Positions 4,734 to 8,603 of a stretch of 8,603 nucleotides of DNA are shown in pieces. The notes under the pieces were generated by a model, which made no database searches, had not been told where the DNA came from, and worked only from the letters and a program-made list of their open reading frames with translations. Position 1 is the stretch's first letter; each line of letters starts with the position of its first letter. The stretch is taken from the IMG/VR virus record IMGVR_UViG_2541047905_000009; one strand, given 5' to 3'. This DNA is from a virus. Lineage: Duplodnaviria > Heunggongvirae > Uroviricota > Caudoviricetes. The position numbers and the translations under genes were made by a program.

Positions 4734-4908
4734 GCCGACAGGAACACCACAACCTCAAAAACGCTACAAAGATGCCCACGGAGCACTCGTTACTGTCGAA
4801 AGCGTGTCTCACAACCGAGTGACGTTTTATCGCGACGGGTATCAATCGCCATGCGTACAACCGCTGGCGCGCTTCATGAAGGAGTTCGCGGAGGTTAACA
4901 AATGCTAA
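4726..4908 (+). CDS. small hypothetical protein, 60 aa ([60 protein letters not shown])
   Basis: ATG at 4726 is preceded by GGAGG (4715-4719) and overlaps the upstream stop (ATGTTTAA). The longer 4639 start in the ORF track lacks an RBS and gives an implausible N-terminus. Confidence 0.6.
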   Translation: MFKPTGTPQPQKRYKDAHGALVTVESVSHNRVTFYRDGYQSPCVQPLARFMKEFAEVNKC

Positions 4909-5930
4909 CCGTCCAGAAGAAGATATTTTCACTGACTGCTATGTCGCAAAAATCCAGCAATATGACAGCAAAGTCTGGCATTAATACAGCAGATACAAGC
5001 AAAGCTTATCATTTTATGGTGGTAGGAGCGGATGCCTTAACTATGTCAGAAATTACGGTCGATGGTGTTAGCGTTGAGAAGGTCAGCGGCTGCGCCAGAG
5101 AATTTCTGGTCGTAGATGACCTGTTCTGCTCGCGTAGTGACTCCACAAAAATCTTCGTCCGCACGCGCGACGTTAACGAAATGAGCGCGATGTACTGTGC
5201 CTCTGGTTCTTCCAATAGTGAGTTTTCGGAGTCCATAAAAAAGAGCTTGCCGTTATGCGGCAACACGGTTTATGGTTATAAGGCACCTCATAAAACGGGT
5301 GCCGGGATTAGGACCCCGCAGGCAATCGAGGCGATACATGACGCGCCAGCGTCTTTTTTTGTATCGGCGCACACGCACACCTTATCAATGGTGGGCTGTA
5401 TGGGGCTGACTTCGGTCAGGCTGGTTTCCTTGATTGCCAGTAGTCCTAACCCTGTACAGTCCACCGCCAGCGAGCTTAGGACCTCCGGCGGTGGCTATAA
5501 ACCATCAATCAAGGAGGCTGCCACATGCTGGCTACTACCCCTACCCAAAAACCGCAATTTATCTGGATTATCGCCGCAGTTCGCCGCGATTGCCCGACAA
5601 TTACCGCCAAAATTCATCATATTGCTGCCGAGTCTGAACGCGATGCTCGCCGTTCTCTGGTGCGCGATCACATCTGCTTTTTTGCTGGTCGTATCCGCAT
5701 GGAGGTGGCACATGATTAAAACCTACGATGTGCATATGGATCCCCTCGAACGCACAAGCCAGATCATCACACTGACAGAAGTGATTAACGACATTCTGGT
5801 GAGCAACTCTCCCTCACGAGACGAAAGACTGAAGGCGTTACTCGCGATATTGGATCTCGCCGTTCGTGACGTTCATTTCCTGCTGGAAGGTGGACAAATG
5901 CCATGCAAAACGGGGGCAACCAATGAATAA
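4902..5930 (+). CDS. uncertain: 342-codon open frame with strong RBS; 5' half plausibly coding, 3' extent unresolved (reads through other RBS-supported genes)
   Basis: ATG at 4902 has GGAGG 7 nt upstream and overlaps the previous stop (ATGCTAA). The frame has no stop until 5930, yet across 5525-5711 it is rich in rare CUA codons while another frame codes well. It contains a terminator-like hairpin. Coding status is ambiguous. Confidence 0.35.
5340..5360 (+). terminator. candidate intrinsic terminator / attenuator (GACGC-GCCA-GCGTC followed by T7)
   Basis: 5-bp GC-rich stem with a 4-nt loop, followed immediately by TTTTTTT (5354-5360), inside the long open frame and about 165 nt upstream of the next RBS. 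Confidence 0.4.
5406..5514 (+). ncRNA. candidate structured RNA / regulatory leader (UUCG-tetraloop hairpin, crossing stems, long-range stem overlapping the SD)
   Basis: Complementary segments read by eye: CTGAC-UUCG-GTCAG (5406-5419); GTCCTAA (5443-5449) with TTAGGAC (5476-5482); CCACCGCC (5461-5468) with GGCGGTGG (5487-5494), crossing the previous pair; CCTTGATTG (5428-5436) with CAATCAAGG (5506-5514), reaching into AAGGAGG. No folding energy was computed. Confidence 0.3.
5525..5719 (+). CDS. small protein, 64 aa, tentatively Icd-like (host cell-division inhibitor family of P4-like elements)
   Basis: Strong SD AAGGAGG 7 nt upstream of the ATG. Codon usage is good in this frame. [21 protein letters not shown]...[13 protein letters not shown] resembles, from memory, the FxW-FAAVRR...FAGR pattern of Icd-like proteins; this family call is low confidence. 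Confidence 0.55.
   Translation: MLATTPTQKPQFIWIIAAVRRDCPTITAKIHHIAAESERDARRSLVRDHICFFAGRIRMEVAHD
5712..5930 (+). CDS. small hypothetical protein, 72 aa (alternative reading: C-terminal part of the 4902 open frame)
   Basis: ATG at 5712 is preceded by GGAGG (5701-5705) and overlaps the stop of the 5525 gene (ATGATTAA). Translation [30 protein letters not shown]... is protein-like. Confidence 0.45.
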   Translation: MIKTYDVHMDPLERTSQIITLTEVINDILVSNSPSRDERLKALLAILDLAVRDVHFLLEGGQMPCKTGATNE

Positions 5931-7542: not shown

Positions 7543-7906
7543 AAATGTAGAAATGGCGCTTAGCTCCGCAATCGGAGAGCAGGTGGCAAAGATTGCTGGT
7601 GCTGTGTGGATTCATAACCTTCATTCTACTGGTGAAGAGAAAATGGCAATTCAGACGCCAGAGGGACGCACCATTACTACATCTCTGAAGCCGTCAGATG
7701 TTTGTGATCTGATTTGCGCATTCATGTACCCAGCAATGAGGACTGTCCACGGCGATAAGTGGAAACTTGCGACAACCGCTGAATTTGATATGTGGCTAAA
7801 CAATGATGGCATGCTGACTGATTACGGAATAACCAAGTGGCAGATGCTAGTTAGCCATATCGCAAACGCTATAGACCACGTGGGGTACGGTGATGCGAAA
7901 CATTGA
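7535..7906 (+). CDS. hypothetical protein, 123 aa
   Basis: GGGAGG 5 nt upstream of the ATG; start overlaps the upstream gene by 8 nt. Confidence 0.65.
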   Translation: MRENVEMALSSAIGEQVAKIAGAVWIHNLHSTGEEKMAIQTPEGRTITTSLKPSDVCDLICAFMYPAMRTVHGDKWKLATTAEFDMWLNNDGMLTDYGITKWQMLVSHIANAIDHVGYGDAKH

Positions 7907-8384
7907 TCTTATCCGTCAGGTTATCAGTGCGTCTGAAAACAACTGGCCTCATGTGCTGGGCTGCCTGAACATAAATGTCCCTGACTCTCCGCGCCGTCAT
8001 GCTCCCTGCCCTGCATGTGGGGGCAAAGATCGATTCCGGTTCGATGACAACGGGCGCGGTAGCTTCATCTGTAATCAGTGCGGCGCTGGTGATGGGCTGG
8101 ATTTAATTAAACGCGTAAATAACTGCGACACAACAGAGGCGGCGCTTCTTGCCGCTGATGTTCTGGGTATTGATTACCGGACAACGGAAACACCAGAAGC
8201 CACCAGCCAGAAACGGGAACAACTGGAAACCGAGCGCCAGCGACGCGAACAGGAGCGCCTGAAAAGGGCAGAGAAGGACGAACAACAAAGACGGGATACG
8301 TTTTCCCGTCAGTTTGATGACATGCGCAGAAAGGCTGTAAACGGCAAATCTGATTATCTGGTTGCGAAAGGGGTAGGTGATTGA
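7893..8384 (+). pseudogene. DNA primase (P4 alpha / primase-helicase type), N-terminal zinc-ribbon fragment truncated by IS insertion
   Basis: CPACGGKDRFRFDDNGRGSFICNQCGAGDGLDLIKR is the CxxC...CxxC primase zinc-ribbon motif. The ORF ends after 163 residues (ATG 7893) at a TGA that is the first three bases of the IS terminal repeat (8382-8384). Full-length homologues are several hundred residues. Confidence 0.8.
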
Positions 8385-8603
8385 ACCGCCCCGGGTTTCC
8401 TGGAGAGTATTTTATCTGTGAACTCAGGCTGCCAGATCATCGTTTCCGATGGAAGCATAATAAGCTTTTTCTGCTTCTGCCGGAGGAGTATGGCCCAGCC
8501 TTTCCAGCAATCGTCGATTGTTATACCAGTCCACCCACGTGAGTGTGGCCAGTTCCACTTCTGCACGGTTTTTCCAGCTCTTACGGTGTATTACCTCCGC
8601 TTT
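8382..8603 (-). mobile_element. IS3-family insertion sequence, IS629-like, terminal part (partial; runs off window end)
   Basis: Terminus TGAACCGCCCCGGGTTTCCTGGAGAG recalled as the IS629/IS3411 terminal inverted repeat. An IS3-family transposase C-terminus is encoded on the - strand just inside. Confidence 0.8.
8424..8603 (-). CDS. IS3-family transposase OrfB, C-terminal 59 codons (partial, 5' end beyond window)
   Basis: Reverse-complement translation in frame with the window end: ...KAEVIHRKSWKNRAEVELATLTWVDWYNNRRLLERLGHTPPAEAEKAYYASIGNDDLAA*. This is the typical C-terminal tail of an rve-domain IS3-family transposase. The track ORF at 8354..8566 is in a different frame and is not the real gene. 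Confidence 0.8.
   Translation of the reverse strand, partial: KAEVIHRKSWKNRAEVELATLTWVDWYNNRRLLERLGHTPPAEAEKAYYASIGNDDLAA

Follow-up and report, generated by a model that had tools for sequence, protein, structure and literature searches.

The question raised by this locus is what the dense cluster of RNA structure signals in front of an Icd-like gene represents. The locus lies in a stretch of 8,603 nucleotides of viral DNA (Caudoviricetes; IMG/VR record IMGVR_UViG_2541047905_000009), referred to here as the window. A preliminary description made from the sequence alone had taken positions 5340-5524 as a structured non-coding segment and had proposed that it could be an immunity or attenuator RNA, either analogous to the CI RNA of phage P4 or new. 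The results showed that 5247-5524 is very probably the RNA immunity region of a P4-like satellite, that is, an IsrK-C4 module, which is named seqA-CI-seqC in P4 and a1b1-c4-a2b2 in P1 and P7. The module is intact and real, and it has already been described in kind, as a homologue of the P4/P1 system. Its family membership, its fold, the coevolution of its boxes with their targets, the identity of the downstream gene and the maintenance of the overlapping open reading frame (ORF) were all computed directly.

AlpA (PF05930) and primase zinc-ribbon (PF08273) domains were found in the window, together with an integrase-like ORF at 1610-2824 (annotated as an integrase in a related island), and the island lies at a tRNA-Thr(CGU) gene (1369-1444). 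To judge from its sequence, with an integrase at a tRNA gene, AlpA and an alpha-type primase, the window is a P4-like satellite. No psu, sid or delta gene was found within the 8603 bases, and the window stops within the primase gene, in an IS3 fragment.

A scan with Rfam covariance models, which the preliminary description had suggested, showed that two families, isrK (RF01394) and C4 (RF01695), match above threshold and over their full lengths; other matches (group II intron, snoRNA, plastid UTR) were below threshold and were taken as chance. The genes and signals of the region, all on the plus strand, are as follows.

4902-5930, plus strand: frame-3 ORF of 342 aa, RefSeq 'ash family protein', counterpart of P4 eta (ORF list; PGAP annotation in a 100% identical genome)
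5247-5276, plus strand: putative PLE-like sigma-70 promoter (-35 TTGCCG at 5247-5252, 18-nt spacer, -10 TATGGT at 5271-5276)
5283-5359, plus strand: isrK/seqA-type RNA (RF01394, 63 bits, threshold 50, model positions 1-77 of 77)
5340-5360, plus strand: isrK intrinsic terminator (GACGC-GCCA-GCGTC at 5340-5353, T7 at 5354-5360; also found in a terminator scan)
5384-5471, plus strand: C4 antisense RNA, homologue of P4 CI RNA and P1/P7 c4 (RF01695, 80.2 bits, threshold 45, E = 5.7e-15, model positions 1-87 of 87)
5525-5719, plus strand: Icd/Kil-like gene of 64 aa (NCBIfam NF033153, phage_ICD_like, 70.4 bits, cutoff 25)
5712-5930, plus strand: next gene, 72 aa, with a Shine-Dalgarno (SD) sequence GGAGG and an ATG overlapping the end of the icd-like gene by 8 nt

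An exact sequence check recovered all of the stems of the preliminary description at their coordinates. The terminator-like hairpin followed by seven U residues at 5340-5360 is the isrK terminator, and the CTGAC-TTCG-GTCAG tetraloop hairpin at 5406-5419 is hairpin 1 of C4. The idea of a P4 CI-like immunity or attenuator RNA near an Icd-like gene was borne out by the full-length C4 and isrK matches, the NF033153 match and the covarying pairings; the wording 'analogous or new' was not, since the full-length Rfam matches make C4 and isrK homologues. Likewise, the elements placed within 5340-5524 held, but the start did not, as isrK begins at about 5283 and is preceded by the promoter at 5247-5276. 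The label 'non-coding' is correct in that RNA genes are present, but the segment is not strictly non-coding, as the frame-3 ORF crosses it.

Folding of 5283-5540 gave -105.4 kcal/mol (z = -3.85, with none of 200 shuffles equally good) and folding of 5384-5471 gave -42.4 kcal/mol (z = -4.42), showing that the structure signals are stronger than chance. The isrK RNA consists of hairpin 1, hairpin 2 with the a1 box in its loop, the b1 box and the intrinsic terminator; the consensus fold of 70 homologues contains compensatory pairs in hairpin 1, and the T-run is present in 70/70. It sits directly upstream of C4, from which it is separated here by a 24-nt spacer, and the tandem was found in all eight comparison loci; it occurs in P4, D6, RCS47, the P2-like P88 and Stx phages. 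The minimum free energy (MFE) fold of C4 equals the Rfam structure, with a 17-bp closing stem (5389-5405/5450-5466), hairpin 1 (5406-5419) with the UUCG loop, hairpin 2 (5420-5441) with the b' box in its loop, and the a' box in a single-stranded junction. When covariation of pairings was counted over 120 specificity types, the closing stem was 99.7% paired with 9 of 17 pairs compensatory, and hairpin 1 was 99.8% paired with 5 of 5 pairs compensatory. The compensatory changes that the preliminary description had proposed to look for in homologous loci were found in all helices of the module.

We infer the promoter at 5247-5276 from its conservation in an alignment of nine diverse loci including P4, in which the -10 TAnnnT is invariant, the TTG-type -35 is mostly kept and the distance to isrK is fixed; the element is 100% identical in another of the compared loci (L003). 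A consensus promoter scan did not report it, as 8 of 12 positions match, which is below threshold. The promoter lies inside the eta-like ORF, and transcription is predicted to start near 5283.

The antisense boxes of C4, their targets and an alternative helix are arranged as follows.

5308-5314, plus strand: a1 box (TTAGGAC), complementary to C4 a'
5323-5331, plus strand: b1 box (CAATCGAGG), complementary to C4 b' with one G-U pair
5426-5436, plus strand: b' box in the loop of C4 hairpin 2, pairing with 5506-5516
5443-5449, plus strand: a' box (GTCCTAA) in the C4 junction, pairing with 5476-5482 and 5308-5314
5461-5494, plus strand: alternative helix, in which 5461-5468 (3' strand of the C4 closing stem) pairs with 5487-5494
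5476-5482, plus strand: a2 target box (TTAGGAC), exact reverse complement of a'
5506-5520, plus strand: b2 target box, overlapping the SD AAGGAGG (5511-5517) of the icd-like gene

The 9-bp long-range stem reaching into AAGGAGG (5428-5436/5506-5514) is exact, CCTTGATTG being the reverse complement of CAATCAAGG, and represents the b'/b2 antisense-target pairing, which grows to 5422-5436/5506-5520 with G-U pairs. Target boxes stand only at 5308, 5323, 5476 and 5507, and no further copies were found in the window. Three-way covariation of the boxes is visible in the nine aligned loci, and family-wide the a' pairing is 92-95% paired (6 of 7 pairs compensatory) and the b' pairing 86.2% paired (9 of 10 pairs with compensatory change). 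Coevolution was further examined in a collection of 221 C4 modules with 136 (a',b') box combinations, which are phylogenetically non-independent and represent the enterobacterial-type C4 subset, as ATGGTRG and the lengths of the helices were constants of the search pattern. The results showed that the module's own box matched, compared with swapped boxes, in 95% versus 5% for a1 (at least 7 nt), 72% versus 15% for b1, 98% versus 4% for a2 and 90% versus 6% for b2, with the own-box matches standing at fixed offsets. In formal pair counts, 95.4% were paired versus 75% after shuffling and at most 47% after sliding, and double-change cells numbered 1068 versus 337.

The two crossing stems of the preliminary description (5443-5449/5476-5482 and 5461-5468/5487-5494) are exact, but rather than a static pseudoknot they represent mainly the a'/a2 and b'/b2 duplexes plus one alternative helix. 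In the latter, 5461-5468 (CCACCGCC) is the exact reverse complement of 5487-5494 (GGCGGTGG); over the 120 types it is 96.0% paired, with 5 of 8 pairs compensatory and slid controls at most 51%. This helix would present a2 (5476-5482) in a loop and is mutually exclusive with the C4 fold.

The gene at 5525, for which the preliminary description had noted Icd-like character and a strong ribosome-binding site, is indeed a member of NF033153, the family of Icd/Kil-like cell-division inhibitors, with AAGGAGG 7 nt before its ATG. It is the first translated gene after the RNA module, a small ORF directly 3' of b2 and the SD, and at the N-terminus it can be aligned with P4 kil and the downstream ORFs of D6 (annotated icd) and RCS47. 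The gene that follows it (5712-5930) gave no family match in Pfam or NCBIfam.

In P1 and P4, RNase P and PNPase trim the leader transcript to yield C4 as a stable RNA of about 77-80 nt. In the same two phages this RNA blocks, in trans, translation of the gene that follows and brings about early termination of transcription, and c4 and CI are trans-acting determinants of immunity in P1, P7 and P4. Processing, action in trans, Rho-dependent termination and translational bypass are carried over from work on P4, P1 and Gifsy-1, and by this analogy the module would work as follows. The internal constitutive promoter (about 5247-5276) would start an untranslated leader at about 5283. Some transcripts would end at the isrK terminator (5340-5360), giving a small IsrK/seqA RNA with a1 and b1, and those that read through would carry C4 (5384-5471) and would be processed to the stable RNA of about 80 nt. 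Its exposed a' (5443-5449) and b' (5426-5436) would pair with a2 (5476-5482) and b2 (5506-5520), covering the SD of the icd/kil-like gene (ATG at 5525); premature termination of the downstream replication operon would be expected to follow from the lack of icd/kil translation, leaving the satellite quiescent and immune to elements that share its specificity. The a1 and b1 boxes in IsrK are additional target copies and could bind C4, acting as a decoy, a competitor or a partner in folding. Transcripts from further upstream would be translated throughout as the eta-like ORF (4902-5930), coupled to the preceding DUF4222 gene, and this translation should override the RNA block, as for P4 eta. The island looks degenerate, and the switch may no longer govern a working replication module, since the primase gene is truncated beside the IS3 fragment with which the window ends on the right.

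This arrangement closely follows that of P4. The same Rfam families stand in the same order (isrK, then C4); C4 is preceded by a1/b1 and followed by a2/b2, the latter over the SD of a Kil/Icd-like gene of 64-65 aa, and a -10 TAnnnT with a TTG-type -35 lies at the same distance from isrK. A long ORF that begins upstream of the promoter, coupled to the preceding gene, likewise spans both RNAs, the 8-nt overlap at the kil/epsilon junction has the same geometry as that between the icd-like and next genes here, and an integrase by a tRNA gene, AlpA and a primase are shared. The Rfam C4 match on P4 lies inside the old 'cI' ORF and falls at what is presumably the map position of the CI RNA. However, the boxes differ (a GTGAGAA and b TTCACAGG in P4; a TTAGGAC and b CAATCAAGG here), the isrK-C4 spacer is 107 nt in P4, four genes (a 143-aa gene, AntA, DUF4222 and the N-terminal part of eta) separate alpA from the promoter here, and PF25738, the epsilon family, does not match the gene that follows icd. 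In the immI region of P1/P7 (a1 b1, c4, a2 b2, icd, ant), a C4-family RNA also lies directly before icd with the SD in b2, and the module can be aligned along its entire length with those of the P1-like D6 and RCS47 at about 70% identity; unlike P1/P7, no antirepressor gene follows icd here, an AntA-family gene lying upstream instead, and the element is a satellite island rather than a P1-type plasmid prophage.

By sequence, the closest relatives are the isrK-orf45(STnc1160)-anrP cassette of Gifsy-1 and those of lambdoid Stx phages. In the Stx2 phage F039, in which both RNAs are annotated as ncRNAs, C4 is 96.6% and isrK 93.4% identical to those of the window, and a' and the b' core are identical. 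However, the gene downstream in F039/Gifsy-1-type cassettes encodes a Rha-family regulator or an antirepressor and not Icd, and the reported function in Gifsy-1 is activation, IsrK in trans turning on translation. Read-through of IsrK, a processed STnc1160 RNA and IsrK pairing have been reported (PMC4825925), Hfq binding and partial terminator read-through of IsrK being reported for Gifsy-1 only. As the same module has been dissected experimentally there as an activator circuit, the direction of the IsrK effect in the present element is uncertain. On this model, IsrK acting in trans would open the long transcript and ribosomes would load inside C4 at ATG 5388, the equivalent of 'orf45', with coupling into the downstream gene. 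Two in-frame ATGs, at 5388 and 5400, are indeed present 12 nt apart in an open frame. However, the frame from 5388 is out of phase with the icd-like gene (+137) and runs to 5930 with no stop near the icd start, so termination-reinitiation at 5525 in the orf45-anrP manner is impossible in the same way; furthermore, the module belongs to a P4-like satellite whose first gene is icd/kil-like, as it is in P4 and P1. These data make a Gifsy-1-type activator an improbable account of the locus. Such a circuit and P4-type immunity are compatible, and neither excludes the other.

The second alternative is a leader that attenuates purely in cis, in which intramolecular folds (pseudoknot, CCTCC, b'/b2) hide the SD of the icd-like gene and no small RNA acts in trans. 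The pairings could form in cis in an unprocessed transcript, the boxes of isrK and C4 are paired with each other in the MFE fold of 5283-5540, the conserved alternative helix exists, and a long Gifsy-1 transcript has been described with two alternative structures. The CCTCC noted earlier as an anti-SD is present at 5482-5486, but a pairing role with GGAGG is weakly supported (78.6% paired versus 73.7% shuffled), and a further hairpin just before b2 (5490-5494/5502-5506) was rejected, being 51% paired and no better than slid controls. In contrast, the target boxes are duplicated up- and downstream of C4 and have diversified into 136 specificity types, the signature of a trans-acting immunity determinant. 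Moreover, homologues yield stable processed RNAs, namely STnc1160 of about 80 nt (PMC4825925) and P4 CI, a processed antisense RNA repressor (PMC4825925; PMC10111431), and CI/C4 is described as an RNA repressor in an immunity system (PMC10111431). It is thus very improbable that the locus acts in cis only, and the IsrK-C4 immunity module remains the preferred reading.

The eta-like ORF has its ATG at 4902, 7 nt after an SD (GGAGG, 4890-4894); this ATG overlaps the end of the DUF4222 gene (TAA at 4906-4908), and translation of the ORF appears to be coupled to that gene. The ORF starts before the internal promoter, spans isrK and C4 together with the target boxes, crosses the icd-like gene out of frame and enters the next gene. 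Residues 124-219 (5271-5558) match the full Pfam model PF10554 'Ash' at 54.3 bits (cutoff 26). The equivalent P4 ORF lies at 1335-1979 of the P4 locus (L009), where PF10554 scores 82.9 bits over 1440-1979, the central part of eta; the P4 epsilon (derepression) protein matches PF25738 (170 bits) and not PF10554. The PF10554 model is the conceptual translation of isrK, the spacer, C4 and the target boxes.

The results showed that this frame is kept open family-wide. Of the 221 loci, 190 have frame 0 open through +130, compared with 63 and 13 for the other two frames, and 153 have it open for at least 200 nt upstream (8 and 6); stops in frame 0 arise in 3 of 99 b' variants, compared with 37 and 29. 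In 117 of 125 loci the distance from isrK to C4 is divisible by 3; preservation of spacer phase was strong when measured from the isrK motif (12 of 17 distinct lengths) and less so when measured from a1, a noisier anchor (21 of 44 distinct lengths, p = 0.03). However, entropy by codon position was 1.15/1.07/1.17, with no third-position excess. The preliminary description had named amino-acid conservation in frame 3 as evidence against its reading; the Pfam 'Ash' match is there, but the third-position excess in variability is not, so that such conservation is only superficial. Dismissal of 'Ash' as a purely spurious ORF was also rejected, as the frame is under active maintenance and has its counterpart in P4 eta. 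Nor is maintenance of an ORF without amino-acid constraint a novelty, the eta mechanism having been published with the eta/kil/CI arrangement and translational anti-termination in P4 (PMC10111431); there, translation of eta prevents Rho-dependent termination of transcripts from the upstream promoter (Forti 1999, as cited in PMC10111431). In the present element, a 2-nt shift separates the eta-like frame from that of icd/kil, so the nesting of kil within eta fails: the icd-like ATG stands at +137 from the C4 ATG, out of phase, while in other loci an ATG at the icd position stands at +138 in 119 and is in phase in 140 of 195.

The remaining alternative, that the segment is merely the central 'Ash' domain of a 342-aa protein with incidental RNA-like stems, draws on the PF10554 match, the PGAP annotation, the open frame and the mostly phase-preserving spacer indels, but is hardly credible in view of two covariance models far above threshold, substitutions that compensate within helices and between boxes separated by up to about 100 nt and that protein constraint does not predict, the absent third-position excess, a pseudogene flag on the 'ash' CDS of a 96% identical relative, an entire Icd-like gene covered in another frame, and the roles published for CI RNA and eta translation in P4.

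The IsrK-C4 cassette itself is mosaic: its C4 is 97% identical to those of Stx2-phage cassettes and 67% to that of the nearest satellite relative, and the flanks are unrelated to those of F039 (56-63% identity). A speculative and rather unlikely extension is that the cassette was exchanged with Stx2-converting lambdoid phages and provides RNA-level cross-immunity or helper sensing between the satellite and a non-P2 phage. Because a' and the b' core are shared, the satellite C4 could silence the Rha-type regulator of an F039-type phage, and, if this is true, phage IsrK or C4 could switch the satellite replication operon. No co-residence with Stx-type cassettes was found, the cassette being single copy in each genome listed among the 35 with a cassette of at least 99%.

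Taken together, the locus is an ordinary, intact example of a well-studied RNA immunity switch and therefore poses no new biological question. Its meaning lies in annotation and evolution. RefSeq gives only the 'ash family protein' CDS; both RNA genes are missing, as is the Icd-like gene in the identical genome, where it is unannotated because the 'ash' CDS covers it. PF10554 ('Ash') represents the translated isrK-C4 locus in the middle of eta and not the ε derepressor (PF25738), so a census of P4-like satellites using PF10554 as an ε marker in effect detected the RNA immunity cassette, and the same holds in effect for the "Rha/Ash domain" proteins of papers on Stx phages. Across the family, the specificities have diversified into 136 combinations in which a and b boxes assort independently of each other, the overlapping frame remains stop-free during this diversification, and entire cassettes move between satellites and lambdoid phages.

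The preliminary description had placed a structured RNA segment at 5340-5524, upstream of an Icd-like gene, and every sequence element it named was found at the coordinates given. When the entire window was searched with Rfam, two full-length matches scored over the curated thresholds:

5283-5359, isrK RNA (RF01394), 63 bits against a threshold of 50
5384-5471, C4 antisense RNA (RF01695), 80.2 bits against 45, E = 5.7e-15

The hairpin GACGC-GCCA-GCGTC at 5340-5353 with its seven Ts at 5354-5360, which had been called terminator-like and was also found by a terminator scan, is the isrK terminator; the isrK fold and its T-run were kept in 70 of 70 sequences. The C(UUCG)G hairpin at 5406-5419 lies where it had been placed and is hairpin 1 of C4. 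The density of RNA structure claimed for the segment was borne out by folding, which gave -105.4 kcal/mol for 5283-5540 (z = -3.85 versus shuffled sequence) and -42.4 kcal/mol for 5384-5471 (z = -4.42). The ORF at 5525-5719 is indeed Icd-like (NCBIfam NF033153, 70.4 bits versus 25), and the AAGGAGG at 5511-5517 lies 7 nt ahead of its ATG at 5525. Every defining feature of C4, isrK and Icd that could be tested was present. The c4/CI RNAs are known for processing by RNase P and PNPase, for Rho dependence and for immunity that acts in trans.

The tandem order isrK then C4 was present in every comparison locus. In phage P4, C4 falls within the old 'cI' ORF, and isrK is also hit by the curated family 'a1, b1 targets of C4' with a score just under threshold. 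The tandem is likewise found in P1-like D6 and RCS47, where icd and/or ant lie downstream of it, in P2-like P88 and in several Stx-converting phages; in the record of Stx2 phage F039 both RNAs are explicitly annotated by the depositors. The RNA system has also been reported for lambdoid prophages, P1, P7 and N15 (PMC3632133; PMC4825925). Among known systems the P4 immunity region resembles the window module most; P1/P7 immI and the Gifsy-1/Stx-phage isrK-orf45-anrP cassette come next. The window module is a known kind of system, with its own distinct immunity specificity. In P88 (L008, 1501-1985), isrK and C4 stand directly ahead of the gene for a 'derepression protein', a member of the epsilon family PF25738, and icd is absent from between them. 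D6 (L005) has a second C4 match at 1080-1159 (40.2 bits, below the threshold of 45), about 550 nt upstream of its main C4. Three C4 copies were found in locus L046 (9728-9792, 10384-10448 and 11040-11104) and two each in L025, L027 and L088, in tandem with a module spacing of about 656 nt; the a'/b' boxes differ between copies where compared (L046, L025). These arrays resemble a stack of several immunity cassettes, each made of an RNA and a small gene, within a single element.

The a' and b' boxes lie inside C4, and their target boxes were found within the window only at 5308, 5323, 5476 and 5507. Three-way covariation of a1, a' and a2 was visible in nine diverse aligned loci, and likewise for the b boxes.

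a boxes of four of the loci
Window: a1 TTAGGAC, a' GTCCTAA, a2 TTAGGAC
E. coli 03_3013: a1 TTGGCGT, a' ACGCCAA, a2 TTGGCGT
P88: a1 TTTCCAC, a' GTGGAAA, a2 TTTCCAC
P4: a1 GTGAGAA, a' TTCTCAC, a2 GTGAGAA

C4 modules were then gathered from viral contigs and GTDB species genomes with a reading-frame-independent DNA pattern, giving 221 unique modules in which a' and b' form 136 different combinations. Because ATGGTRG and the lengths of the helices were set by the pattern, the statistics apply to the enterobacterial-type subset; the loci are also not independent of one another. Target boxes were at fixed offsets across the modules, and perfect matches of at least 7 nt were far more frequent for a locus's own box than for boxes swapped between loci (a1, 95% versus 5%; b1, 72% versus 15%; a2, 98% versus 4%; b2, 90% versus 6%). 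In an alignment that held a single module for each of 120 specificity types, 95.4% of cells in the C4 fold, a'/a2 and b'/b2 were paired, versus 75.1% when shuffled and at most 47% with slid partners, with 1068 double-change cells versus 337 in shuffles. Compensatory pairs numbered 9 of 10 in b'/b2, 6 of 7 in a'/a2 and 5 of 5 in hairpin 1.

The three stems of the preliminary description (5443-5449/5476-5482, 5461-5468/5487-5494 and 5428-5436/5506-5514) are exact complements, the last lengthening to 5422-5436/5506-5520 if G-U pairs are counted. The box covariation and pair counts indicate that this supposed long-range stem into the SD is the b'/b2 antisense-target duplex and 5443-5449/5476-5482 the a'/a2 duplex. 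The other of the two stems described as interleaved, 5461-5468/5487-5494, is distinct from these duplexes: it is an alternative helix, itself conserved, with 96% pairing and compensatory changes in 5 of 8 pairs, which competes with the C4 closing stem and would put a2 in a loop. CCTCC is present at 5482-5486, but comparison lends little weight to the cis anti-SD role proposed for it, and gave no support for an additional small hairpin (5490-5494/5502-5506) just ahead of b2.

Frame 3 holds a 342-aa ORF (4902-5930), named 'ash family protein' in RefSeq for a 100% identical genome. Amino acid conservation in this frame, named beforehand as evidence against an RNA, was not what was found: in the C4-module collection, non-fixed positions showed no third-codon-position excess (entropies 1.15, 1.07 and 1.17 by codon position) and substitutions in the module track RNA pairing. 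The frame (frame 0 of the family) is nevertheless actively kept open.

Open frames across the module
Open through +130, of 221 loci: frame 0, 190; frame 1, 63; frame 2, 13
Open at least 200 nt upstream: frame 0, 153; frame 1, 8; frame 2, 6
Distinct b' variants with a stop, of 99: frame 0, 3; frame 1, 37; frame 2, 29

The isrK-to-C4 distance was divisible by three in 117 of 125 loci and for 12 of 17 distinct lengths, less markedly with a noisier anchor. The window ORF is equipped with an SD of its own and begins at an ATG that overlaps the DUF4222 gene stop. The open frame is the known P4 arrangement. In P4 (L009), the frame-0 ORF at 1335-1979 starts at the vis end, upstream of PLE, with three consecutive ATGs (products of 199, 198 and 197 aa), covers isrK and CI, and has kil as its last 65 codons. 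A passage of PMC10111431, citing Forti et al. 1999, describes CI as encoded inside eta, the constitutive promoter as internal to eta, and Kil as a truncated form of Eta. Of the eta features that could be tested, in-frame nesting of kil was the one lacking in the window: the icd ATG is at +137 rather than +138, and this 2-nt shift carries the frame-3 ORF out of frame across icd into the next gene, which explains why PGAP annotates a single long CDS and leaves out the Icd-like gene. That gene is unannotated in the 100% identical RefSeq genome NZ_CP022730 (5826-6020) because the long CDS covers the same stretch; both RNA genes are likewise unannotated there. In a 96% identical relative, PGAP marks the long CDS as a pseudogene and calls icd.

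The surroundings agree with the P4-like element described earlier, in the order proA, tRNA-Thr(CGU), integrase, AlpA, AntA, DUF4222, module, small genes, truncated primase and IS3 fragment. The ATG of a 72-aa gene at 5712-5930 overlaps the icd end by 8 nt, a junction geometry like that of kil/epsilon in P4; this gene had no family match in Pfam or NCBIfam. A primase-like ORF at 7890-8384 (zinc-ribbon PF08273) stops after 164 aa where a related island has a 2757-nt TOPRIM/DUF927 gene, and is followed by an IS3-family transposase fragment (8424-8558, minus strand). The satellite replication gene thus appears disrupted.

By comparison of identities, the window cassette is a mosaic.

Identity to the window of the nearest satellite relative (L003) and of Stx2 phage F039
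Flanks: L003, 97-100% (promoter 100%, icd 99.5%); F039, 56-63%
isrK: L003, 88%; F039, 93.4%
Spacer: L003, 71%; F039, 79.2%
C4: L003, 66.7%; F039, 96.6%
a2-b2 region: L003, 70.6%; F039, 88.2%

F039 has exactly the same a' box and b' core as the window. In P13374, the O104:H4 outbreak Stx2 phage (C4 core at 1304), the b' box is the same as in F039 but the a' box differs (TTGTAGCAA) and is matched by its a1 and a2 (TTGCTAC), implying that a and b boxes are exchanged and assort independently. The exact cassette (at least 99% identity) was found in 35 of 5426 complete E. coli genomes; among the matches listed there was one copy per genome, under an 'ash family protein' CDS. Related cassettes at 80-95% identity lie in about 270 further E. 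coli genomes under 'ash' or 'Rha family' CDSs.

The analysis establishes family membership, the fold, that the boxes coevolve, which gene follows and that the ORF is maintained. The steps from promoter to bypass are drawn by homology, with conservation as well for the promoter. A putative promoter at about 5247-5276 would start the leader near 5283; it scores under the scan threshold, with an invariant -10 TAnnnT and a mostly kept TTG-type -35 in the nine-locus alignment. On the minus strand, an inverted repeat (TTGCCG-TTATG-CGGCAA, 5247-5263) overlapping this -35 reads as a terminator-like hairpin then a T-run, with no obvious minus-strand gene to terminate. Termination at 5340-5360 would yield IsrK, bearing target mimics, and read-through transcripts, once processed, C4. 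Pairing of a'/b' with a2/b2 would occlude the SD of icd/kil, and the untranslated transcript would then terminate, silencing the replication operon. Transcripts initiated upstream and translated across the region as an eta-type ORF may escape the block.

Pfam PF10554 'Ash' falls on residues 124-219 of the frame-3 ORF, exactly isrK, C4 and the target boxes. In P4 it matches the translation over isrK, CI RNA and the kil start (1440-1979, 82.9 bits); the epsilon derepression protein (1972-2259) is PF25738 (170 bits), not PF10554. In Stx1/Stx2 phages, CDSs named 'Ant' or 'regulatory protein' (L006, 1275-2297; L007, 1274-2107) start about 230 nt upstream of isrK and run in frame across both RNA genes to a Rha domain (ASH aa 73-168, Rha aa 178-263), an eta-like fusion in lambdoid phages. 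Rha proteins of Stx phages have been described with PF10554 as one of their protein domains (PMC8951638), and a satellite census relied on it to mark epsilon in P4-like satellites (PMC8628076). The relevance of the module lies more in annotation practice than in biology: PF10554 is not the epsilon protein.
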